Below are positions 33,645-49,154 of a DNA stretch of 64,000 bases, piece by piece (position 1 is the stretch's first letter; each line of letters starts with the position of its first letter). The notes under the pieces were generated by a model. That model saw only the letters and a list, made by a program, of their open reading frames with translations. It did not search any database and was not told where the DNA came from. The stretch comes from Escherichia coli (lineage in GTDB: Bacteria; Pseudomonadota; Gammaproteobacteria; Enterobacterales; Enterobacteriaceae). The position numbers were made by a program, and so were the translations under genes. The stretch lies in the NCBI RefSeq assembly GCF_044324785.1, contig NZ_CP172127.1. The stretch is one strand, 5' to 3'.

Positions 33645-34187
33645 ATGTTAAACCGTGATTTTGATCATCTATCAACCCTGCTCCATCTTTTTTTTGAGCG
33701 TGACGATATTTGCCAAAAGCTTAATATTATTGATCAAAACGAGATCACCGGCTGGGAAGTTTGGTTCCAGGTGGAGTTTGCTAATATGCTTTGCTCAACA
33801 GACCATGAATGGTGGCGTGAACAAACACTATCCTGTGATATGCGCAAAAAGCCCGAGCGCCCCACCCTACGTACAGATTTTTTATTACGCAAAAAAGGCT
33901 GGGCACAAGATAGCTATATTGCGCTTGAAATTAAACAGAACAGAGATGCGACAAGTTGTGTTAAAAATATGATCGCAGACTTAGAGAAAAGCGCCAAAAT
34001 TAAACGTTCTGAGCTTGATTTGCGTAGTTTCTGGACTTTAGGTATTACTCCGATGATCGACAGAGAAAGACTGAACTCTCTCATCGACAGTTATTTAGAT
34101 GAGAAATTCTATCTTACTAAATCTCGTAAAAAACACGTTTTACTTAAAGAAATAAAAAATACACCATATTGCTATATTGTTATTTAA
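33645..34187 (+). CDS. Hypothetical protein, possible PD-(D/E)XK nuclease fold (180 aa)
   Basis: ORF in an AT-rich islet; start chosen at ATG 33645 with AAAGGA Shine-Dalgarno 9 nt upstream (track ORF begins 33561). Contains E...D-x14-E-x-K pattern (WEVWFQVEF ... RTDFLLRKKGWAQDSYIALEIK). No recognised K-12 counterpart. Confidence 0.5.
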   Translation: MLNRDFDHLSTLLHLFFERDDICQKLNIIDQNEITGWEVWFQVEFANMLCSTDHEWWREQTLSCDMRKKPERPTLRTDFLLRKKGWAQDSYIALEIKQNRDATSCVKNMIADLEKSAKIKRSELDLRSFWTLGITPMIDRERLNSLIDSYLDEKFYLTKSRKKHVLLKEIKNTPYCYIVI

Positions 34188-36679: not shown

Positions 36680-36883
36680 ATGTTTGGTAACTTAGGACAG
36701 GCAAAAAAATATCTCGGCCAGGCGGCGAAGATGTTGATTGGCATTCCAGACTACGACAACTACGTCGAGCATATGAAGACCAACCATCCCGACAAGCCGT
36801 ACATGAGCTATGAAGAATTCTTCCGCGAACGCCAGAACGCGCGCTACGGCGGCGATGGTAAAGGCGGTATGCGCTGTTGTTAA
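36680..36883 (+). CDS. yjiX: DUF466 small protein YjiX (67 aa)
   Basis: [70 protein letters not shown], immediately downstream of the CstA-family transporter gene. Confidence 0.85.
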
Positions 36884-36893
36884 TGGAGAGAGC

Positions 36894-37850
36894 ATGAACC
36901 CGATTGCAGTTACCCTACTCACCGGTTTTTTAGGCGCGGGCAAAACCACCCTGCTGCGCCATATTCTTAACGAACAACACGGCTACAAGATTGCCGTGAT
37001 TGAAAACGAATTCGGCGAAGTCTCCGTTGATGATCAATTGATTGGCGACCGCGCCACGCAGATCAAAACGCTGACCAACGGCTGCATCTGCTGTTCGCGC
37101 TCCAACGAGCTGGAAGACGCACTACTCGACCTGCTGGATAATCTCGACAAGGGCAATATTCAGTTCGACCGTCTGGTCATTGAATGCACCGGCATGGCCG
37201 ATCCCGGCCCGATTATTCAGACCTTTTTCTCCCATGAGATTTTATGCCAGCGCTACCTGCTGGACGGCGTGATTGCGCTGGTGGACGCGGTACATGCCGA
37301 TGAGCAGATGAACCAGTTCACCATCGCCCAGTCACAAGTGGGCTACGCCGACCGTATTCTGCTGACTAAAACCGACGTCGTAGGCGAAGCAGAAAAACTG
37401 CGCGAACGCCTGGCGCGCATCAACGCCCGCGCACCGGTCTACACCGTCACCCACGGCGACATCGACCTGGGCCTGCTGTTCAACACCAACGGTTTTATGC
37501 TGGAAGAAAACGTCGTCAGCACCAAACCGCGTTTCCACTTTATCGCGGATAAACAAAACGATATTTCGTCGATTGTGGTGGAACTGGATTACCCGGTAGA
37601 TATCAGCGAAGTTTCCCGGGTGATGGAAAACCTGCTGCTGGAATCGGCGGATAAACTGCTGCGTTACAAAGGGATGCTGTGGATTGACGGCGAACCTAAC
37701 CGTCTGCTATTCCAGGGCGTCCAGCGCCTCTACAGCGCCGACTGGGACCGCCCGTGGGGCGATGAAAAACCGCATAGCACGATGGTGTTTATCGGGATTC
37801 AGCTGCCGGAGGATGAGATTCGGGCGGCGTTTGCGGGGTTGAGGAAGTAA
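36894..37850 (+). CDS. yjiA: COG0523-family P-loop GTPase YjiA (318 aa)
   Basis: Protein MNPIAVTLLTGFLGAGKTTLLRHILNEQHGYKIAVIENEFGEVSVDDQLIG... with GCICCS motif; internal start chosen. Confidence 0.9.
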   Translation: MNPIAVTLLTGFLGAGKTTLLRHILNEQHGYKIAVIENEFGEVSVDDQLIGDRATQIKTLTNGCICCSRSNELEDALLDLLDNLDKGNIQFDRLVIECTGMADPGPIIQTFFSHEILCQRYLLDGVIALVDAVHADEQMNQFTIAQSQVGYADRILLTKTDVVGEAEKLRERLARINARAPVYTVTHGDIDLGLLFNTNGFMLEENVVSTKPRFHFIADKQNDISSIVVELDYPVDISEVSRVMENLLLESADKLLRYKGMLWIDGEPNRLLFQGVQRLYSADWDRPWGDEKPHSTMVFIGIQLPEDEIRAAFAGLRK

Positions 37851-37861
37851 TTTTGGATGAT

Positions 37862-37892
37862 GGCCGCCATGTGGCGGCCTGAATTATTTTTT
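37862..37892 (+). terminator. Rho-independent terminator of yjiA
   Basis: ggccgcca-tg-tggcggcc hairpin followed by tgaattatttttt; its T-tract overlaps the stop codon of the convergent BrnA-like ORF. Confidence 0.8.
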
Positions 37893-38186
37893 GTTCTGAT
37901 CGCGCAGCATCGCTTCACGTAAAATTGCGTTCAGGCGAGTTTGATAGCCTTTACCTGGTCGCTTCAACCATTCCATCACATCAGCATCAATACGCACCGA
38001 AGCCTGAGTTTTCAATGGCCGATAAAACTTACCGCGTTCTGCGTTAGACCATTGCTCATCGCTGGAAGGTGGGATATCACTGTAATCAATCTCTTCGTCG
38101 GATTTATTCGCCAGAGCCTTCAGTTCGGCCTCATGCTGCACATCGAGTGTAGAGGAGGTCCCTCGTTTATGTTTAACCATGCTCAT
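37884..38186 (-). CDS. BrnA-like (DUF4415/CopG-type) putative antitoxin, about 100 aa
   Basis: C-terminal ...SVRIDADVMEWLKRPGKGYQTRLNAILREAM resembles the ribbon-helix-helix tail of BrnA-family antitoxins; start chosen at ATG 38186 with GAGAGGA Shine-Dalgarno (track ORF extends to a GTG at 38252). Confidence 0.6.
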   Translation of the reverse strand: MSMVKHKRGTSSTLDVQHEAELKALANKSDEEIDYSDIPPSSDEQWSNAERGKFYRPLKTQASVRIDADVMEWLKRPGKGYQTRLNAILREAMLRDQNKK

Positions 38187-38324
38187 AGCGATTCCTCTCT
38201 TTACGATCTGCTTTTCGTGCACTGATGATTCGAATGTTGGAAATAGCATCACGTTTTAGGAAAAGATAGGGAAGTTGATATGAAGGGGCTGGATGGCAGC
38301 ATTGGGACACCATCCAGCATTTAT

Positions 38325-39059
38325 TCAAACCTGATAGCAATCCACCAAAAATGCCATCATTTCACTGGCATCTTTGCTGTGATAAAAGCGCACCATTTTG
38401 CTGTTGAACTCCAGCGCACGAGCTGCGGGTACACTAATGGGATTGTAACCGTGGCGCATTAACCAGCCGTTCATCATATGGCGACTGGTACGCTTGTTGC
38501 CATCAAAGAAAAACTGAAAATAAGTACCAAATAAAAACATTGCCAGCGCCCCTTCGAATGGTGGCATCTCTTTTATTTGTGCCACACCTGCGGCGAATAT
38601 TCGATTCAGTTCAGGTGCACCTGCTTCAGTGGCTGGTGGAAAATGAGTGCCCAGTTCACCGAGATGAACGCGCGCATTGTAATGTAACTCTTCACCTTCG
38701 CCGCGAAAAACGCCCCACTCCAGCGCCTCATTACGCGCAATAATGCCGTTAAGTAACGTGAACGTTTTCTTATCAAGGTCAAAACGCCCGAATTGCACAA
38801 GTTCAATCAGTTTTTTTGCGCTATCTGCCAGGTTCAACACCTGCTCAGTATCACTGACCTTATGCCCGCCAACAGTGACGCCATCGAGCAACGTTTTAAC
38901 TTCAACAAAGGTATAGGGGTTATTTTCCAGTTGCGCGGCATCCCAGACAAACCCAGCCATATGCGTTTTGAAGGTAAATAAGGCTGCGCGCGTACCGACA
39001 ATTTGCATCGCCGGGATGGCATTTGCATTCCAGCTCAGGTCCAGTAGTTTGGTTGTCAT
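38325..39059 (-). CDS. Divergent Fic/Doc-family-like protein (244 aa), catalytic-motif His replaced by Gln
   Basis: Motif QFFFDGNKRTSR (aa 181-192; DNA 38484..38519) aligns with the Doc motif HIFNDANKRTA and the Fic core HPFx[DE]GNGRxxR; AAGGA Shine-Dalgarno 8 nt upstream of the ATG. Confidence 0.5.
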   Translation of the reverse strand: MTTKLLDLSWNANAIPAMQIVGTRAALFTFKTHMAGFVWDAAQLENNPYTFVEVKTLLDGVTVGGHKVSDTEQVLNLADSAKKLIELVQFGRFDLDKKTFTLLNGIIARNEALEWGVFRGEGEELHYNARVHLGELGTHFPPATEAGAPELNRIFAAGVAQIKEMPPFEGALAMFLFGTYFQFFFDGNKRTSRHMMNGWLMRHGYNPISVPAARALEFNSKMVRFYHSKDASEMMAFLVDCYQV

Positions 39060-39102: not shown

Positions 39103-41202
39103 TTAAACCATCGCGTTATCCATCTGCTTTTCAAATGCCTGACGAATTAATCCCATCACATAAGGAAGCTCAGAAAGATCGCTGAAACCTATTTCAACAT
39201 CGCCATTGCCCCAACGGCCTATATCTGTGACATCTTTAGCCATACATTTTGGGTCAACCAGTTCATGGAATGGCATATTTAGTGATAAACGTAAGCGGCT
39301 TTTTTGCGGCACCACATCAACAAAATTCGTCTCCGCTTTGAAGGCAACATAGAGCTTCAATATTTCTCGCGTAACCCCAGCGTCCAGCGTCATAACGGCA
39401 TCAGAAAGGCTGTCAAAAAGTACGCGGATGTGCGTACCTTCTTCAAGTTGCGGGAAATCAGCAAGGACATATCCCGTTCCTCGTTCAACGACAGTGCGAT
39501 AACGAGCCAACACGTCTTCCGAAAGTTTGGGGATCGCCCAGACGTCTATTGCCAGCTCGGACAGACGTTCCGCTCTCTTTTGTATCGCTGCACGATCCCA
39601 TATTTCACATTGCCCTAACCCCGTGTTCAGGCGTAATGGACTTTCCTTAAAGCCACCTTTTATATCTCGTTTCTTCGCAAATGGACGGTCGCTGTAGCTT
39701 GAGTTATAGCCAGTTAACGTTAAATTACCCAACGTATGGAGCCACTTTTTATGGATACGCTTCCATTCCGGACCAAGGTCATCGCGCCACTTCACCGATA
39801 AATTAGGGTTCTGCGGCATGATATGTTCAATCGTATAAGTGTCAACATAGACCCGTTCTTTACGATCGTGGTTTTCAAATCTGCGTAGCCAATAGCTGCG
39901 ATTACGGAAGTTGTAGAGATCGCGAGTTTTCAGTTCACGTTGAAATTCATCATCATCCGGGAAACGACGGTAGGAAGGCAGATCCAGCAAATGCGCCGCA
40001 ATGCTCTCCAGATAACGCTCTTTATCCAGCACTTTGTAAAACGTAGCGAAGGTTTTAGTAAATGAGTTGGTGGGAATTGCACAGACTGCGCGCCGGAAGA
40101 TATACGACTCAATTAAACGCGTGGCACCTAAAAAATCCACAGCAGAAAGGATCCCCTGTTTATAGTCGTGATAAAGCACCAACAGGAACGGCCATGCAGC
40201 ATCAACTTTCAGTTCCCGCAGATCCTGAAACGCCATCTTTAAGGTTTTATCCTTTTCGCTATCCAGCGCCATCGCACAAAAATAGTCAGCAAACGTACGA
40301 ATATCCGCAACCAGCGCCTCCATCCCGCTATCTATTACACCAGGTTTTCGCGCATAGCGTTTAAAGGCTTCATAGACATCACCAATTCGCGGAATCTCAC
40401 CTGTTTTTACCGTCAGGTAATTACGCATAAAACTGTCGAAATAGTCAGTGTATCCCTTCTGACCAAACGCCAGCTCCATGGGCCGCCAGTAATCGTCGTA
40501 CAGTTGGCTTTGATGTTCTGGCTCCAGCCCCATCAGAACATAGTTGCGTACTAGATCCGCCTGACTCAGCGCTTTTCCTGTTGAGTTCATGCTTTCAAAG
40601 ATTAGTTGCGGATTATCCTGACCGCGATTCAAGGCGACATCCACAATCAGCAGTTTGGAAAGTCCCTGACATAACGCGGTGAAATTGCCGTGGAGTTTGC
40701 CTATTTGCTCATGGAAAAACTCAAAATTCTCTTTCACGCGTAGAGAGCAATTTTCTGCCAGCGGTTTTTGTCTAATCAATGCCAGCAGGCTCTCTCTGTC
40801 CGTTTGCGTAAGCAGTAACTTAAATCCACGCTTGCCCGATTCATACGGATTGAGCAGATAATAGTTTCGTAATTTCATGGCGGAGAAACCATCCATCACC
40901 TCGTCATCGCCAAGGTGTCTGGACAACGCTTCCAGCAATAACATCGCCGTTGTCAGGCGTTGCTGACCGTCAATCATCAGTAAGGGAGAGATCCCCGAAA
41001 CCTGATATAGGCCCTGTTCGATATACACCACCGAGCCGATAAAATGCGCCGGGATATCATCACGCTGCCCGGCACGTATTACATCGTCCCAGAGCTGGCG
41101 GCACTGTTCCTCTGACCATGAATAAGTACGCTGATAAATGGGAATAACGAATTGCTGAGAGCGTTTTAGAAAATCGAGTAATCGGGCTTCGGTGGCTTTC
41201 AT
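39103..41202 (-). CDS. GmrSD/SspE-like type IV restriction protein (DUF262 N-terminal NTPase domain + DUF1524 HNH-like nuclease domain), 699 aa
   Basis: N-terminal FVIPIYQRTYSW and DGQQRLTT (DUF262/ParB-like signatures); C-terminal TYTIEHIMPQN...LHTLGNLTL (His-Me/HNH-like of DUF1524); AGGAG Shine-Dalgarno; additional C-terminal extension of about 130 aa. Confidence 0.75.
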   Translation of the reverse strand: MKATEARLLDFLKRSQQFVIPIYQRTYSWSEEQCRQLWDDVIRAGQRDDIPAHFIGSVVYIEQGLYQVSGISPLLMIDGQQRLTTAMLLLEALSRHLGDDEVMDGFSAMKLRNYYLLNPYESGKRGFKLLLTQTDRESLLALIRQKPLAENCSLRVKENFEFFHEQIGKLHGNFTALCQGLSKLLIVDVALNRGQDNPQLIFESMNSTGKALSQADLVRNYVLMGLEPEHQSQLYDDYWRPMELAFGQKGYTDYFDSFMRNYLTVKTGEIPRIGDVYEAFKRYARKPGVIDSGMEALVADIRTFADYFCAMALDSEKDKTLKMAFQDLRELKVDAAWPFLLVLYHDYKQGILSAVDFLGATRLIESYIFRRAVCAIPTNSFTKTFATFYKVLDKERYLESIAAHLLDLPSYRRFPDDDEFQRELKTRDLYNFRNRSYWLRRFENHDRKERVYVDTYTIEHIMPQNPNLSVKWRDDLGPEWKRIHKKWLHTLGNLTLTGYNSSYSDRPFAKKRDIKGGFKESPLRLNTGLGQCEIWDRAAIQKRAERLSELAIDVWAIPKLSEDVLARYRTVVERGTGYVLADFPQLEEGTHIRVLFDSLSDAVMTLDAGVTREILKLYVAFKAETNFVDVVPQKSRLRLSLNMPFHELVDPKCMAKDVTDIGRWGNGDVEIGFSDLSELPYVMGLIRQAFEKQMDNAMV

Positions 41203-41486
41203 GAATGACTCCTGTCAAATTGCACTGGCAAACGGCGTCATTATGCTGCGAATAAAAAATAAAAGTTAGCGTCTTTGTTTCTGCAAAAATACCATTCTAG
41301 GATAAATCAAAATATATTAAGAAACACCTCAACACGCATTCATTAGAACAATTAATATTTCCAATTCATATTTATAACGTATTGAAAATGATCGTGTTTT
41401 TGATCATCACAGCAATAGTTTGATATAACAAAGCATTCACTTCACATTGAATATCCCCCTCTTTTTCAGGGCAAGGAATGCTTTTT

Positions 41487-43832
41487 ATGTCATCAACTAA
41501 TTTCAGCCAGATTGCAGCCTTCCTGTGGTCTGTCGCCGACCTGTTACGCGGCGATTTTAAACAATCACAATATGGACGAATTATTCTTCCTTTTACCCTT
41601 TTGCGTCGTCTGGAATGCGTACTCGAAACAACGAAAGACGCGGTCATTACCGAGGCGCAAAAAGTAAAAGCCATGAAACTGCCGGAGGAAGCCCAGGAGA
41701 AAATGATCCTGCGGGCGACTAATGGCCTCACGTTCTTCAATGCCTCAGCGATGGATCTCAGCAAAATGGGGCAAAATGGCATACAGGACAACCTGGAAAA
41801 CTACATCCAGTCGTTCTCTTCGGATGCCCGCGAAATTTTCGAACACTTCAAGTTCAGCGAGTTTGTCGGACAGCTGGCGGATGCAAACTTACTGTTCAAA
41901 GTGGTGCAAATATTCGCTAAAGCAGATTTATACCCGGAGCACGTCACCAACCACGATATGGGGCTGGTATTTGAGGAGCTGATCCGACGTTTTGCCGAGA
42001 GTTCTAACGAAACCGCCGGGGAGCACTTTACCCCGCGTGATATCGTCAATCTGACCACCTCGCTGGTGTTTTTCGATGATGATGATGCACTCAATAAAGA
42101 CGGCATCATCCGCACCATTTACGACCCAACAGCAGGAACCGGCGGCTTTCTCTCTTCCGGCATGGAGTACGTCCACAAACAAAACCCCAATGCCGTGATG
42201 CGCGCGTTTGGTCAGGAGTTAAACCCGGAATCCTACGCCATCTGCAAAGCCGACATGCTGATTAAGGGCCAGGACGTCAGCCTTATCAAACTCGGCAACA
42301 CCCTTTCCAACGATCAACTCCCCGCAGAAAAATTCGATTACATGCTCTCTAACCCACCTTTCGGCGTGGACTGGAAAAAGATCGAATGCGACATCAACGA
42401 CGAGCACAAACTCCAAGGTGCTGATGGCCGCTTTGGCCCCGGCCTGCCCCGCGTCTCCGACGGTTCGTTGCTGTTTCTGCTGCACCTGATCAGCAAAATG
42501 CGCGATGCCAAAAGCGGTGGTGGGCGGATCGGCATCATTCTTAATGGCTCTCCGTTATTCACCGGCGGCGCGGGCAGCGGTGAAAGCGAGATCCGCCGCT
42601 ACATTCTGGAAGCGGATTTGCTGGAAGGCATTATCGCCCTGCCCACCGACATGTTTTACAACACCGGTATCGCTACCTATGTGTGGATTTTGTCGAATAA
42701 AAAAGCGCCTGAGCGCAAGGGCAAAGTCCAGCTTATCGACGCTAGCAACCTGTGCGGCAAGATGCGTAAATCGCTGGGGTCAAAACGCAATATTCTCGGG
42801 GAGGAGGATATTGGTTTAATCACCCGCACGTTTGGCGATTTCGAACCCGTTGCCACCACTACGCTTGCGGCGTTAGGCCTGGAGAAAGCACCCGAACAAA
42901 AATCCAGCCGGGGACGCCAGCCCGCAACAACCAAAACCGAGGCGGCAAAAACTTTTGCCAGCAAAGTCTTTCACAGCACCGAGTTTGGCTATCGTCGCAT
43001 CACCGTTGAGCGCCCGTTGCGCCTGTCGGCTCAGATAAGTGATGACGCCATTGCCACATTGCGCTTTGCGCCGAAGCCGTTTATCGCTCCGATGGCGCAA
43101 CTGTATGACGCCTTTGCTTTCCAGTGGCAGGACGGTCATTACGGCGACTTAACAGCGGTAGAAAGTGAAGCCCGCGCCATTCTTAAAGCCGATTTTAGCG
43201 AGCTGAAAGAGAAGCAAATTAAAGATCTGCTCAACAGCAAATTATGGCTGGCCCAGCGCGGGTTAATGGAAAAAGCGCGGCGTATTCAGGCGGCGATGGG
43301 TATGCAGGCGGGCGGCAAAGACACCGTTAGCAATGACTTTAATCAGTTCCAGTTGACGCTGAAAGAGGCGTTCAAAACCGCAGGCGTGAAGCTGGATGCG
43401 AAAGAGAACAAGCAGTTTATTGATGCCATTACCTGCAAAAACCCGGATGCCGAACCAGTTATCAGCAAGGTACTGAAAGAAGCAGCCCAACCGTTGTACG
43501 GCGCGTTTGAGTACCACGGAAAGGTTGTGGAGTTTGAGCCGGATGGCGACCTGCGTGATAACGAGAATGTGCCGTTAAATCCGGCGGTATCTACCAGCGA
43601 GTTGATCGAGGGTTACTTCAAAGCAGAAGTATTGCCGCACGTCGCGGATGCGTGGATTAACGCCGATAAGCGCGATGCGAAAGATGGGGATATCGGGATT
43701 GTGGGGTATGAAATTCCGTTTAATCGCCATTTTTATGTTTATCAACCGCCAAGGCCGCTGGAGGAGATTGATGCGGATCTGGATGCGGTAAGTGCTGAAA
43801 TTATGAAACTGTTGCAGGAGGTACATTCCTGA
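41487..43832 (+). CDS. hsdM: Type I restriction-modification N6-adenine DNA methyltransferase subunit HsdM (about 781 aa, with long C-terminal extension)
   Basis: SAM-binding motif [11 protein letters not shown] and catalytic motif IV NPPFG; start placed at second ATG (41487), which has AAGGA 9 nt upstream; stop overlaps hsdS start. Confidence 0.85.
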
Positions 43833-45115
43833 TGGCTACATACAAAAACTATCAACAAACCAATTTGTTAGGATTAGAAATACTTCCATCTCATTGGGAA
43901 GTAAAAAAAATTAAGCATCTATTTTCAATTGGTCGAGGTAGAGTCATATCTCAAGCGGAATTAGAAGATGAAGGTATGTATCCAGTATACTCATCGCAAA
44001 CACATAATGATGGATGCTTAGGTTATATTAATAGCTATGACTTCAATTGTGAGCAAATTACATGGACTACGGATGGTGCAAATGCTGGAACTGTTTTTCT
44101 TCGGAAAGGCAAATATAACTGCACAAATGTATGTGGAACATTACAACCAATAAATAAAGAAAACTTTTTACAATTTCATTTATATTGCTTGCAGTACATC
44201 AATCAATTTCATAAGCGCCCTGATACTAATGGGGCGAAGATAATGAATAATGAGATGGCCGAAGTATATATTCCACTACCTTCTAACCAAGAGCAATTAC
44301 GAATCACCACCTTCCTCGACCACGAAACCGCAAAAATCGATAACCTAATCGAGAAACAACAACAATTTATTGAACTATTGAAAGAAAAACGTCAGGCCGT
44401 GATTAGCCATGCGGTGACAAAAGGGCTAAATCCTGACGTGCCGATGAAAGATTCTGGAGTTGAGTGGTTGGGAGAAATGCCTGAACATTGGCATTTTACT
44501 CGAGCTAAATTTGTTTCAAACATATTTGTTCCGCAACGAAATAAGCCAGAGTTAAATGATGACATTGGTATTTTTTGGATAACAATGGAAAACATGAGTC
44601 AACCATATATAACATCTTCCTTTCAATATGTTTCTGACGTTGCAGCACTAAAATCAGGCTCAAAGATATTACCAAAAGGAGCCGTAATAGCCAGCTGCGT
44701 TGGTAATTTTGGAATTGCTGCAATCAATGAGGTCGATGTTATTATCAATCAACAATTGCAAGCATTTCAGACCTTAAGTATAAAGGCCGATTTTCTCATG
44801 GCTTTAGTTTCTATTTCTAAAAAGTATTTTGAAATCATTGGCACCGCTGCAACCCTTGCATATGTAAATAAAGAAGGTTTTGAAAATCTTCCTGTTGTTA
44901 TTCCATCGGAAAATGAACAAATTAATATTTGTAAATACATTAGAGATAAAAATAAAAAGTTTGAAATATTGATTGAGCGTTCCATGCACCAAATTGAGTT
45001 ACTCCAGGAACGCCGCACCGCCCTTATCTCCGCCGCCGTCACCGGCAAAATAGATCTCCGCAACTGGACCGCCCCCATCGCCAAAACGGAAGCACCCACG
45101 GAGGCCAGCGCATGA
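43832..45115 (+). CDS. hsdS: Type I restriction-modification specificity subunit HsdS (427 aa)
   Basis: Two AT-rich target-recognition domains separated by a conserved helical spacer (...LIEKQQQFIELLKEKRQAVISHAVTKGL...) and a matching C-terminal repeat (...ELLQERRTALISAAVTGKIDL...); translationally coupled to hsdM and hsdR. Confidence 0.85.
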   Translation: MATYKNYQQTNLLGLEILPSHWEVKKIKHLFSIGRGRVISQAELEDEGMYPVYSSQTHNDGCLGYINSYDFNCEQITWTTDGANAGTVFLRKGKYNCTNVCGTLQPINKENFLQFHLYCLQYINQFHKRPDTNGAKIMNNEMAEVYIPLPSNQEQLRITTFLDHETAKIDNLIEKQQQFIELLKEKRQAVISHAVTKGLNPDVPMKDSGVEWLGEMPEHWHFTRAKFVSNIFVPQRNKPELNDDIGIFWITMENMSQPYITSSFQYVSDVAALKSGSKILPKGAVIASCVGNFGIAAINEVDVIINQQLQAFQTLSIKADFLMALVSISKKYFEIIGTAATLAYVNKEGFENLPVVIPSENEQINICKYIRDKNKKFEILIERSMHQIELLQERRTALISAAVTGKIDLRNWTAPIAKTEAPTEASA

Positions 45116-48100
45116 ACAACGACATTACAAAAGAGCTCAACCTGCAAAACGACATCATCGCCCAGATGGTGGAAAAAGGCTGGATTGTCGGCAAAGGTGA
45201 CGGCTACGACCGGGAACGTGCGCTATACGCACAAGACGTTCTGCACTTTGTGCAAACCACCCAACCGCAAGAGTGGGAGAAATTCGCCCGCGTTTACCCC
45301 AACGACAACGAACGCCATTTCCTCGACGCGCTGGTTGCGCAGTTAAAAAAAGCCGACAGCAACGCCACCGACATCCAGTCGCGCACCTGGGGTACGCTCG
45401 GCGTACTTCGCCACGGACTGAAAATCCGCAATGCCCGTTTTTCGCTGTGTCAGTTTAAACCGGAACATAATCTCAACCCGGAAACGCTGGCGCGCTATCA
45501 GCAAAATATCTGCCGTATCGTGCCGGAACTGGTCTACAGCCCGTATGCCTCAAATAGCGTCTTTGCAGAAACGGGCGTGAAAGCCAAAAAATGGCGTATC
45601 GATCTGGTGCTGTTTATCAACGGCCTGCCGATTGCCACGCTGGAGCTGAAATCCGAATTTAAACAGGCGGTGCAGAACGCCATTGCCCAGTACAAAAAGA
45701 CCCGCCTGCCGAAGGATCCCGCGACCAATAAACCCGAACCGCTGCTGACCTTTAAGCGCGGCGCGCTGGTGCATTTTGCCGTCAGCCAGTATGACGTCTT
45801 TATGACCACCAAACTCGCGGGTGACAGCACCTTCTTCCTGCCGTTTAACAAAGGCACCAAAGACGGCGGCGCAGGCAACGAGATCCCCGAAGATACCCAC
45901 CGCTACGCCACAGATTATCTGTGGAATGAAGTGCTGCTGCCGGACAACTTATTAAAAATCCTCGCCAGTTTTGTCCATTTGCATATTGAAGAAAAAGAGG
46001 AGTGGAACGGGCTGAAAGCGAAGAAAGAGAGCCTGATTTTCCCGCGTTATCATCAGTGGGATGTGGTCAACAAACTGCTGGAGGCCGCGACGATTGAAGG
46101 AACCGGCCATAAATACCTGATCCAGCACAGCGCCGGTTCCGGTAAATCGAACTCCATTGCCTGGACCGCCCACCAGCTTTCTCGTCTGTACGACGTGAAC
46201 GGGGAAAAACAGTTCCACTCCATTATCGTGGTGACGGACCGCACGGTGCTGGACGACCAGCTTCAGGACACCATCTGGCAGTTCGAACATGCCGACGGCG
46301 TGGTCGGGCGCATCAATAACAGAGAGGGCGACGGCTCTAAATCGGAAAAGCTCGCCAACGCGCTGGAAAACTCGCAGCCGATAATCATCGTCACCATCCA
46401 GACATTCCCGTTCGTGCTGAAAGCCATCGAAAACAGCGTCAGCCTGAAGCAGCGTAAATACGCGGTGATTGCCGACGAAGCACACTCCTCGCAGAGCGGT
46501 TCTACCGCCCGTCAGCTTAAAGAAGTGCTGATGAGCGAAGAAATGGATGATGACTTGGTACTGTCGTCAGAAGATATCCTGGATGCGACCATTGCCGCCC
46601 GGAAAGGCAGCAGTAACCTGAACTACTACGCCTTTACCGCCACGCCAAAATCCAAAACCCTCGAACTTTTTGGTCGCCGTCCACGTCCCGATGAACCGGC
46701 GTCAAAAACCAATAAACCTGAGGCCTTCCACGTCTACTCCATGCGCCAGGCAATCGAAGAAGGCTTTATCCTCGATGTGCTGAAAAACTACACCAACTAC
46801 AAAGTGGCGTATCAGTTGCTGCAAAAGCTGGTAGACAAGGACCGCGAAGTCGACAGCAAGAAGGCAAAGATAAAGCTCAACCTGTGGGTGACACTGCACG
46901 ACCACAATATTTCGCAGAAGGTGAAGGTGATTGTGGAGCACTTCCGCAAACATGTGATGCATCTGCTTGGTGGCCAGGCCAAAGCGATGGTGGTCACCAG
47001 TTCGCGTAAAGCCGCCGTGCGCTATAAGCTGGCATTTGATAAATACATTAGCGAGAACAATTACCAGAAAATCAGCGCGATGGTGGCGTTTTCCGGGGAA
47101 GTTGAATTCCGGGAAGGCGACCATAACAGCCTGGCATTGTTAAACCAGAAATTTACTGAAATAAACATGAACCCCGGCCTAAAAGGGCGGGATATGCGCA
47201 AAGCCTTCGACAGCGATGATTATCAGGTCATGCTGGTTGCCAATAAATTCCAGACCGGTTTTGACCAGCCGAAGCTGTGCGCGATGTACGTGGATAAAGC
47301 CCTCGGCGGCGTCGAGTGCGTGCAGACGCTCTCCCGCCTGAACCGCACCTATCCGGGCAAAGCGGAATCAGGCACTTTTGTCCTCGATTTTTATAACGAT
47401 CCGGGCGAGATCCTCGGCGCATTCCAGCCCTATTTCCAGACGGCGGAACTGACCGATGTCAGCGATCCGCAGCAGGTATTCGATCTGTTTGAAAAACTGC
47501 GCGCCACGCAGATTTTTCAGTGGCATGAAGTCGAGCAGTTCTGCGAGGCGTACTTCATCAAAAATAAATCGAATGCGGCGATCAGTAATATCTGTAAACC
47601 GGCGGTCGAACGCTGGAAAAAGCGTTATCTGATGGCAATAGACGCCTATTTGACCGCCAAAGAGATGTTCGAGCGCACTAAAAAAACGGGCGATACGGTG
47701 TTAATAACCAATGCGGAAAACAGTTTTAAAGCCTGTAAGCAGGAGAAAGATCGTCTGGAGATTTTCAAGAAAGATCTCGGCAGCTTTGTTCGCTTTTATG
47801 AGTTTATGTCGCAAATCGTTGAGTACGATGACAAGGATCTGGAAAAGCTAAGCCTGTTTGCGCGCCATTTACGCCCACTGCTGCATGAGCAACGTCTGGA
47901 AGAGGATGAAATTGATCTCAGTAATGTGGAGATGAGTCACTATCGTTTATCGAAAATCCATGAGCAAGATTTACGCTTACAGGAAGAAACGTCTGACTAT
48001 ACGCTGGATGCAAGTAATGATATTGGTACGGCAAAAGCGAAAGATAAAAAAGAGGAGTTTTTATCGCAGGTGCTTTCTCGGATGAATGAATTATTCATTA

Positions 48101-48375
48101 GCGACCATTTGACCGACAAAGATATGATCAGCAATGCTTTTGCGGTGTATAACAAAATAACTGAAAATGAAAATGTTATGACACAAATTAAAAACAATCC
48201 GCCAGAACAAGCGATTCTTGGTGACTTCCTCCAGGCAGTTGATAATGCTGTAATGGACAGTAATGACGCTCGGCAAGAATTTATGTTGCAATATTTATCC
48301 GATCCAGCTCGGGCAAAGGGCTTTGCTTATCTGATGTTTGATATGCTAACGGGGAAAATTGCTTTGCCAACATAA
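45112..48375 (+). CDS. hsdR: Type I restriction endonuclease subunit HsdR (1087 aa)
   Basis: N-terminal PD-(D/E)XK-like nuclease region (IDLVLFINGLPIATLELK), SF2 helicase motif I SAGSGKSNSIAW and motif II VIADEAHSS (DEAH); ATGA overlap with hsdS. Confidence 0.85.
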   Translation: MNNDITKELNLQNDIIAQMVEKGWIVGKGDGYDRERALYAQDVLHFVQTTQPQEWEKFARVYPNDNERHFLDALVAQLKKADSNATDIQSRTWGTLGVLRHGLKIRNARFSLCQFKPEHNLNPETLARYQQNICRIVPELVYSPYASNSVFAETGVKAKKWRIDLVLFINGLPIATLELKSEFKQAVQNAIAQYKKTRLPKDPATNKPEPLLTFKRGALVHFAVSQYDVFMTTKLAGDSTFFLPFNKGTKDGGAGNEIPEDTHRYATDYLWNEVLLPDNLLKILASFVHLHIEEKEEWNGLKAKKESLIFPRYHQWDVVNKLLEAATIEGTGHKYLIQHSAGSGKSNSIAWTAHQLSRLYDVNGEKQFHSIIVVTDRTVLDDQLQDTIWQFEHADGVVGRINNREGDGSKSEKLANALENSQPIIIVTIQTFPFVLKAIENSVSLKQRKYAVIADEAHSSQSGSTARQLKEVLMSEEMDDDLVLSSEDILDATIAARKGSSNLNYYAFTATPKSKTLELFGRRPRPDEPASKTNKPEAFHVYSMRQAIEEGFILDVLKNYTNYKVAYQLLQKLVDKDREVDSKKAKIKLNLWVTLHDHNISQKVKVIVEHFRKHVMHLLGGQAKAMVVTSSRKAAVRYKLAFDKYISENNYQKISAMVAFSGEVEFREGDHNSLALLNQKFTEINMNPGLKGRDMRKAFDSDDYQVMLVANKFQTGFDQPKLCAMYVDKALGGVECVQTLSRLNRTYPGKAESGTFVLDFYNDPGEILGAFQPYFQTAELTDVSDPQQVFDLFEKLRATQIFQWHEVEQFCEAYFIKNKSNAAISNICKPAVERWKKRYLMAIDAYLTAKEMFERTKKTGDTVLITNAENSFKACKQEKDRLEIFKKDLGSFVRFYEFMSQIVEYDDKDLEKLSLFARHLRPLLHEQRLEEDEIDLSNVEMSHYRLSKIHEQDLRLQEETSDYTLDASNDIGTAKAKDKKEEFLSQVLSRMNELFISDHLTDKDMISNAFAVYNKITENENVMTQIKNNPPEQAILGDFLQAVDNAVMDSNDARQEFMLQYLSDPARAKGFAYLMFDMLTGKIALPT

Positions 48376-48440: not shown

Positions 48441-49154
48441 ATGCTGAAGATGATTAAAGATTTTAAATTCAAAAAATACATTAAAAAATTACGTGAAGAA
48501 GGTTTGTTATTTTATGTTTCTTTCGGGTTTATATTTACATTGTTAATGGAAGTTGATGATCGATTACCGTACTATCTTCAACAAGACTTCTTTTTTGATA
48601 CACTTATAGGATTTATGCCAATCAATATATTCTTTGTTTTGATTTGCACATATATATTTTTCAATGCCGTCCATGCGCTTATTTCACCCTATAAATTTCA
48701 AAGAATTGGTGAGAAATTCCTCTCTGAACTTGATAAAAGAACACAACAAATTGGCTTTATTATTTCATTCATATGTTTTGGCATGACTTTGTTTTGTGCA
48801 CTGGTGTGGTTGCTGTTTTTTGAGATGAATACTGAAAGTTACTACGCAAAATATACATTAATTTTTTTGGCTGTTTTTATCATTATGATTATGTTTTCTT
48901 CAGCAGTTAATCCAGTAATGAACAGAATATCACAAAAAATTAAGGAATCGGACTCACATGGAAATTCAAAAATAATTCTTATAATTATAATCATTACATT
49001 ATCGCTATTATTACCAATTGCGTGCATTATCAATAAAAATAAAACAATTGAAATCAATATCAAGAAAGAAACTTATCAGCAAATAAAAGAAAAAACAAAA
49101 ATGAAACCAGAGGATTATATCAAAAAATTGATTACTGATATTAAATTCAACTAA
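48441..49154 (+). CDS. Hypothetical multi-pass membrane protein (237 aa), strongly AT-rich
   Basis: ORF 66 bp downstream of hsdR on the same strand; several hydrophobic segments; Lys/Ile-rich composition, much lower GC than its neighbours. Confidence 0.55.
   Translation: MLKMIKDFKFKKYIKKLREEGLLFYVSFGFIFTLLMEVDDRLPYYLQQDFFFDTLIGFMPINIFFVLICTYIFFNAVHALISPYKFQRIGEKFLSELDKRTQQIGFIISFICFGMTLFCALVWLLFFEMNTESYYAKYTLIFLAVFIIMIMFSSAVNPVMNRISQKIKESDSHGNSKIILIIIIITLSLLLPIACIINKNKTIEINIKKETYQQIKEKTKMKPEDYIKKLITDIKFN

Follow-up and report, generated by a model that had tools for sequence, protein, structure and literature searches.

Two restriction systems diverge from one short spacer in the chromosome of Escherichia coli, and a palindrome with two Dam sites (GATC) in this spacer raises the question of whether it is an operator or a methylation-sensitive switch coordinating the expression of both, as a sequence-only reading of the locus had proposed. 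The 64,000-nucleotide stretch of DNA analysed here (the window) carries the locus between yjiA and yjiS/yjiR, that is, in the immigration control region. The locus is 99.8% identical to that of strain N3 and was found in 114 of 5426 complete E. coli genomes. On the plus strand, hsdM (41487..43832; 781 aa, Pfam HsdM_N and N6_Mtase) is the first gene of hsdM-hsdS-hsdR; hsdS (43832-45115, plus strand) lies 3' of hsdM and hsdR (45112-48375, plus strand) lies 3' of hsdS, the ends of the three genes overlapping. The minus strand carries a GmrSD-family type IV restriction gene (39103..41202; 699 aa, Pfam GmrSD_N, GmrSD_C and DUF5655), whose protein has DUF262 proteins and SspE as its closest solved relatives. 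DUF5655 is an extra C-terminal domain of this protein (residues 593-692). The gene is intact in the window, split by IS4 in strain N3 (the closest genome) and truncated in strain GF130.

The 781-residue HsdM is matched by Pfam and by all type I M subunits in the PDB only over residues 1 to ~457. The remaining ~320-residue C-terminus (residues ~460-781, window positions 42866-43832) has no Pfam match at E<=0.001 and none among solved structures, and the long form of the protein (780-789 aa) is kept across many Enterobacterales. Directly 3' of hsdR lies a 237-aa ORF (48441-49154, plus strand), which is 'hypothetical' in RefSeq and shows a sub-threshold match to DUF898 (E=4e-4, 20 bits vs a cutoff of 28). 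An accessory function in the restriction-modification (R-M) operon is conceivable.

The spacer between the GmrSD-family gene and hsdM is 284 bp long (41203-41486), given an hsdM start at 41487, and has a G+C content of ~33%. This start is the one annotated by RefSeq in near-identical E. coli genomes, as opposed to an in-frame upstream ATG at 41478, which reads ATA in one natural allele. Domains and coordinates agree with the earlier placement of the palindrome in an AT-rich spacer between these two divergent genes. The palindrome itself, TGATCGTGTTTTTGATCA (41389..41406), is read directly in the sequence, with GATC at 41390-41393 (the distal site, 97 bp 5' of the hsdM ATG) and at 41402-41405 (the proximal site, 85 bp 5' of the ATG), a start-to-start distance of 12 bp. 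The full inverted repeat, ATGATC-N8-GATCAT, spans 41388-41407. Two sites are present, as had been described, but their 'inverted orientation' is meaningless, GATC being self-complementary. The palindrome is trivial for the same reason, because an inverted repeat around two copies of GATC needs just one or two extra base pairs.

The window contains 273 GATC sites, with 17 neighbouring pairs spaced at <=12 bp and four TGATC-N(0-20)-GATCA arrangements, as well as 83 inverted repeats with five-bp arms and an 8-nt spacer, vs ~62 expected. Dinucleotide shuffles of this spacer alone gave P=0.21 for at least two GATC sites, P=0.019 for a pair within 12 bp and P=0.008 for a TGATC..GATCA arrangement. 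The GATC pair is mildly unusual locally, and about one such case is expected over the many intergenic regions of the 64-kb window. These numbers bear on one alternative, namely that both GATCs are mere AT-rich spacer DNA and that a GATC shared between lineages reflects common ancestry. Closely spaced GATCs are frequent in the window, and a local P of ~0.01-0.02 is not significant over a 64-kb scan, both of which speak for pure coincidence.

Formation of a cruciform or hairpin at the palindrome was rejected, as the DNA fold of 41380-41415 (-3.2 kcal/mol, z=-0.48) is no better than that of shuffled sequences. A 12-bp duplication was considered as the source of the second GATC; it is plausible from the sequence, TGATCAT being repeated in the majority allele, and is not demonstrable. 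A similar palindrome, TGATCAAAACGAGATCA, is present at 33731-33747 in a region of 40% G+C 5' of btsT, where it sits inside a gene annotated by RefSeq as a frameshifted hypothetical in strain N3. This second case illustrates how such GATC palindromes arise repeatedly by chance.

Variation among E. coli-type alleles was analysed in seven genomes (93-99.8% spacer identity) and 18 metagenomic contigs of the same type, which together represent 16 distinct haplotypes. The contigs were found through a DNA pattern in the 5' coding region of hsdM, and this search was not conditioned on the upstream DNA. The distal GATC is present in all 16 haplotypes and both GATCs in 15 of them. The latter count says little because nearly every other base is also kept, and such near-total conservation of the spacer, which makes the GATCs uninformative within E. 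coli, again counts in favour of pure coincidence. The majority allele reads TGATCATGTTTTTGATCA, in which the distal GATC forms the centre of ATGATCAT. Haplotype L094 reads cGATC and has lost the outer T-A pair of the palindrome, and in L102 TTTTTGATCATCACAAC is replaced by TTTTTTATTGTGTTGCC (TTTATT), so that the proximal GATC is absent. The segment 41415-41452, which includes the extended -10 candidate described below, is invariant in 16 of 16 haplotypes and mostly kept in the diverged L113.

The change in L102 (metagenome contig ERZ808041.4355) is a patch of 12-13 bp, GATCATCACAAC to TATTGTGTTGCC, aligned to window positions 41401-41413; apart from it the spacer of this contig is E. coli-type. 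The patch loosely resembles the reverse complement of the original sequence and may be a micro-inversion or a recombination scar. Part of it (TTGTTG) is also present in L113. The GmrSD protein of L102 is just 86% identical to that of the window, which indicates that the contig is a mosaic.

Across genera, a protein-guided scan with one genome per species yielded 80 loci in which HsdM is 68-97% identical. Most of them have unrelated upstream DNA, many of them having a tgTATAAT promoter at ~40 bp from the ATG and lacking a GATC close by. Homology to the last ~150 bp of the spacer was found only in L007 (Pseudocitrobacter, with a divergent GmrSD gene) and in L008 and L025 (both Citrobacter). From alignments, upstream sequences and neighbour identities, we define this part (41337..41486, plus strand) as the hsdM-proximal promoter module. 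Between lineages the module is only ~60-68% identical, yet TGATC is its longest invariant run 5' of the ribosome-binding site in MAFFT alignments, and in an alignment-free comparison of five lineage representatives TGATC at -86 is the sole 5-mer found at the same position (within 6 nt). This retention speaks against pure coincidence. Such sharing was seen in 0.1% of mononucleotide shuffles, a figure that has to be read with the homology, and hence the non-independence, of the compared sequences in mind.

A further protein search with contig look-ups added seven lineages, which were tested against the predicted TGATC at ~-86. Universality of this pentamer was refuted by L113/L114, which have GATA at that place and GATC at -96, and by L115, which has no GATC. 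The failed prediction led us to revise the claim to a conserved AAAAnGATC at -82 to -97. Among the added lineages, (t/a)aaatGATC(n2)ctta is found between -82 and -88 in L116, L117/118 (Salmonella enterica subsp. salamae), L119-121, L122/123 and L124. L113/114, in which HsdM is 95% identical and the module is a diverged E. coli-type one, have GATA at the proximal site and gaaaaaGATC at -96. In L115 (87% identical), no GATC occurs over 180 bp, and the place of the motif is taken by AATCgctta. In an anchored comparison of 14 lineage representatives, AAAAnGATC is found 82-97 bp upstream of hsdM in 13, L115 (AATC) being the exception; its E. coli version is GAAAATGATC (41384..41393, plus strand). 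The hosts of the conserved GATC are named as Escherichia, Citrobacter, Pseudocitrobacter and Salmonella, taken here to be Dam-positive Enterobacteriaceae. The absence of the site from L115 fits pure coincidence, which on the whole of this evidence we regard as quite unlikely.

None of the lineages outside the E. coli type has a second GATC at 12 bp. It is ambiguous from the alignments which of the two E. coli sites is homologous to the site of the relatives. Flank identity and survival in L102 and L113 point to the distal GATC as the motif homologue, whereas position, MAFFT and most pairwise alignments place the GATC of the relatives on the proximal site instead. With either assignment, the compared sequences indicate that conservation does not extend to both GATCs together. 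At the proximal site the conserved feature appears to be TTGAT, which is -35-like, and not the Dam site, which would be specific to part of the E. coli lineage.

Modules of the Citrobacter type (L008, L096, L104, L119-L121) contain three (a/t)aaa(t/c)GATC copies within 55 bp, at ~-134, -117 and -84. The array is present without its middle copy in L122 and without its first copy in L116, and AACAATTA occupies the position homologous to the first copy in the alleles of E. coli. By a rough hand estimate, the GATC count in the Citrobacter-type modules, with the shared site discounted, is not above the expectation from composition. GATCs flanked by A-tracts have been reported to be poorly methylated by Dam (PMC4417163); the sole exact fit to this description is AAAAAGATC of L113, while the window has AAAATGATC and TTTTTGATC. 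Plasmid-borne relatives of HsdM were rejected, being <=72% identical among the best matches listed (with one record at 80-90%) and having no homologous upstream DNA. The hsdM relative of E. coli strain KL53 was also rejected; it belongs to a different system, located on an integrative element.

The neighbours of the module indicate which gene it serves. It lies beside a divergent GmrSD gene in E. coli, L007 and L099, beside divergent brnT-brnA in L025, L116, L119-121 and L124, and beside a same-strand gene for a NERD-UvrD helicase in L008, where the helicase gene is followed by what we take, by eye, to be a REP element. In L117 and L122, yjiA is directly upstream of the module. Because there are four kinds of upstream neighbour, the module belongs to hsdM and travels with this gene instead of with GmrSD. 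A coordinating role for both operons, as had been envisaged, is not supported, given the presence of the homologous module where the neighbour is brnTA, the NERD-UvrD helicase or yjiA.

A 122-aa ORF (37884-38252, minus strand) is located between yjiA and the Fic gene, at a place where the annotation of strain N3 shows BrnA and a truncated BrnT. The Citrobacter-type relatives (L025, L116, L119-L121) have the order yjiA, brnA-brnT and divergent hsdM, and comparison with window positions 36810-39059 suggests that Fic and GmrSD were inserted as a cassette beside an existing brnTA/hsdM arrangement in the immigration control region. The spacer would then unite two promoter regions rather than act as one control region for both genes.

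Promoters were searched for with our own sigma-70 PWM scan and with a stricter promoter scan. In the PWM scan the top-ranked plus-strand candidate of the spacer is TTGATC-18-TGaTATAAC. It consists of the -35-like hexamer TTGATC (41400..41405, plus strand), which belongs to the best sigma-70 candidate for hsdM (PWM score 9.2-11.3), and the extended -10 candidate TGaTATAAC (41421..41429, plus strand), with a predicted transcription start near 41436. The proximal GATC (41402-41405) forms positions 3-6 of the TTGATC hexamer. By our own scan, the Dam sites lie within or adjacent to the top-scoring candidate promoter of hsdM, and the coincidence of the top candidate with the proximal site is a further argument against pure chance. 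The -10 candidate is without the canonical final T, and a minus-strand candidate, TTGTTA-17-TGtGATGAT (41431-41403), which overlaps the same proximal GATC, scores almost equally. The stricter sigma-70 scan reported no promoter within the 284-bp spacer. Promoter calls of this kind are unreliable in DNA of 33% G+C and constitute weak evidence. L113/L114 retain a TTGATA-18-TGaTATAAC geometry without the proximal Dam site.

A perfect IHF core, WATCAANNNNTTR (present as TATCAAACTATTG), is located between the candidate -35 and -10 elements, on the minus strand (41413-41425). A match of this quality has P ~0.06 in shuffles; the majority E. coli allele matches at 8/9 positions, and no match was seen by eye in the aligned sequence of L007. 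Further downstream, a possible 5'-UTR hairpin (41430..41484, plus strand) is formed by AAAGCAUUC pairing with GGAAUGCUUU (fold -13.9 kcal/mol, z=-2.09), and it would enclose the Shine-Dalgarno sequence AAGGAA (41473-41478, plus strand). Alleles of the E. coli type, the diverged L113 among them, retain both arms, and no similar pairing was seen in the upstream sequences of other lineages, which were inspected by eye only. With a transcription start near 41436, the transcript would lack part of the 5' arm. The predicted hairpin may be a translational control element or may have arisen by chance. A search of Rfam returned only an Enterococcus sRNA model at a sub-threshold score (21.9 bits vs a gathering score of 44.3), which was rejected.

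With these features in place, the proposed operator or switch can be evaluated. In its strongest form, it would be a palindromic operator or a Dam-dependent epigenetic switch of the pap/agn43/gtr/opvAB type, coordinating GmrSD and hsdMSR, in which a regulator spanning both GATCs blocks their methylation. Two GATCs 12 bp apart in a divergent regulatory region do call such systems to mind, since the known switches use 2-4 GATCs clustered within binding sites of OxyR, Lrp, Fur or CRP (PMC7708049), and the distal site of the majority E. coli allele is the centre of the longer palindrome mentioned above. However, a consensus-based test for CRP, Fur, OxyR, Lrp, Fis and DnaA across the spacer found no match above shuffles, the best being OxyR 12/20, Lrp 12/15, CRP 12/22 and Fur 13/19 (for Fur, 19% of shuffles were as good or better); a regulator with another binding sequence would escape such a test. 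A Pfam scan covered the eight larger ORFs between 34465 and 49154, leaving out small ones such as 37884-38252, and matched CstA, CobW, Fic (weak), GmrSD, HsdM, HsdS, HsdR and a weak DUF898; no regulator or C-protein-like domain was matched among these eight. Moreover, the pair is not conserved as a pair, the outer bases of the palindrome vary and the module occurs without GmrSD. The prior is also low, as only 16 undermethylated regulatory GATC loci were found in a whole Salmonella genome (PMC7708049). The operator is not supported by this comparison, with the outer pair lost in L094, the proximal site absent from L102 and L113/L114, none of the six consensus sequences matched above shuffles and no regulator domain recognised in the eight ORFs. 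Of the methylation-sensitive switch, what is left is weaker, namely one GATC conserved across genera within AAAAnGATC, at which an effect of Dam is possible. Overall, we consider an operator or epigenetic switch acting on both systems to be highly improbable.

A more modest role for Dam is easier to accommodate. Methylation of GATC might alter the binding of RNA polymerase and thereby have a graded or transient effect on hsdMSR, with no heritable switch; expression would then differ between fully methylated DNA, hemimethylated DNA (possibly bound by SeqA) and the unmethylated DNA of a newly acquired system. Retention of a GATC between -82 and -97 by 13 of the 14 lineage variants is consistent with such a Dam-sensitive promoter, and core-promoter candidates overlap a GATC in both promoter models, that is, the -35-like TTGATC and the alternative in which GATC abuts a -10-like hexamer. 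SeqA binds cooperatively to hemimethylated pairs of GATCs that are within about three helical turns of each other and roughly on the same face of the DNA, and a spacing of 12 bp is within this range. The pair here has the required spacing, which is generic, there being 17 such pairs in the window. Precedents exist in sulA, trpR, glnS and IS10. Against this proposal, a stretch of 180 bp is free of GATC in L115, the -35 GATC is absent from L113/L114 and L102, and a burst of expression from one operon for three genes would not order M before R. Genome-wide, promoter GATCs and Dam-dependent expression correlate little (PMC4417163). We regard a Dam-sensitive hsdM promoter as possible, though unlikely.

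The explanation that we favour, and consider somewhat probable as a whole, is that the palindrome is not a functional unit: two Dam sites of the hsdM promoter module happen to lie close together in this lineage. TTGATC, the 18-bp spacer and TGaTATAAC would be the most likely sigma-70 promoter of hsdM-hsdS-hsdR in E. coli-type alleles, and the distal GATC would be the E. coli copy of the older AAAAnGATC motif. In lineages outside E. coli, where the motif reads TAAAAT directly followed by GATC, it may be a present or former -10 element with its discriminator, or a protein-binding site. The hsdM promoter is probably constitutive in essence. Methylation of both sites is likely, given that E. coli is Dam-positive. 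This modification, or transient binding of SeqA to the hemimethylated pair after replication, could at most tune the strength of the promoter, and a bistable switch is not expected.

On present evidence, the element is most likely an ordinary AT-rich promoter region carrying Dam sites. Conservation of the exact GATC across genera, and not of mere A-rich DNA, hints that the Dam site itself may matter, in which case 'ordinary promoter DNA' underestimates the element. In a bolder version, which we consider very unlikely, AAAAnGATC is a Dam-methylation sensor that sets the transcription of the type I R-M operon, the second GATC of E. coli adding a SeqA pair. If this were true, the state of the promoter, unmethylated or hemimethylated when just acquired or replicated vs fully methylated, would set transcription of the operon, and a Dam-based establishment control or a replication-coupled control would operate in systems thought to be regulated almost only post-translationally. 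A functional Dam site in the hsdM promoter would link the methylation state of the host to the expression of a defence system. In practical terms, the analysis defines an hsdM promoter module of ~150 bp with candidate -35 and -10 elements, and the natural alleles (GATA, AATC and the L102 patch) are ready-made point mutants.

How does this locus compare with known systems? According to a recent review, little is known about the transcription of type I systems (PMC12707154). Two published data sets were considered and rejected. In the methylome of the ST131 strain EC958 (PMC4659465), the system of the immigration control region, EcoMII, has a 539-aa HsdM and an Mrr-like neighbour; it is a different system, and its expression and methylation data are therefore not applicable here. 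In the list of undermethylated GATCs of Salmonella (PMC7708049), the candidate STM5308 is a sugar transporter and not an R-M gene.

EcoKI hsd occupies the same chromosomal site, between yjiA and yjiS/yjiR. The hsd promoters at that site are described as weak and constitutive, with mainly post-translational control (PMC12707154). However, the system described here has another gene order (hsdM-S-R, in one apparent operon), a longer and different HsdM (781 aa) and unrelated upstream DNA. Control of R-M genes by a C protein bound to its C-box offers another parallel, in that a palindrome 5' of R-M genes was proposed as the operator. Such control is typical of type II systems, the cited type I example being Mycoplasma gallisepticum (PMC12707154). 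In contrast, no C-protein-like domain was recognised among the eight ORFs scanned here, and the palindrome is just GATC with one or two additional base pairs.

The phase-variation switches pap-Lrp, agn43-OxyR, gtr/opvAB-OxyR and sci1-Fur share with the present locus the clustering of GATCs in an AT-rich regulatory region of horizontally acquired genes. They differ in that there is no recognisable Lrp, OxyR or Fur site here, and in that one GATC is conserved across relatives with no alternative pairs of binding sites. A further resemblance is to sigma-70 promoters such as those of sulA, trpR, trpS, tyrR and glnS and IS10 pIN, with which the locus shares a Dam site overlapping a -35-like hexamer (TTGATC) in a Dam-positive host. 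GATC in the -10 or -35 hexamers of sulA, trpR, trpS, tyrR and glnS is associated with higher expression in dam mutants (PMC4921776); in sulA it lies in the -35 (PMC4417163), and IS10 provides a precedent for a Dam-sensitive promoter (PMC4659465). In the alternative model for our locus, GATC abuts a -10-like hexamer, as in the TAAAAT-GATC of relatives. Unlike in the sulA-type promoters, natural alleles here exchange the -35 GATC for GATA or lose it while the operon is retained. If the hsdM promoter were nevertheless Dam-dependent in the manner of sulA, it would provide the first example among type I R-M operons.
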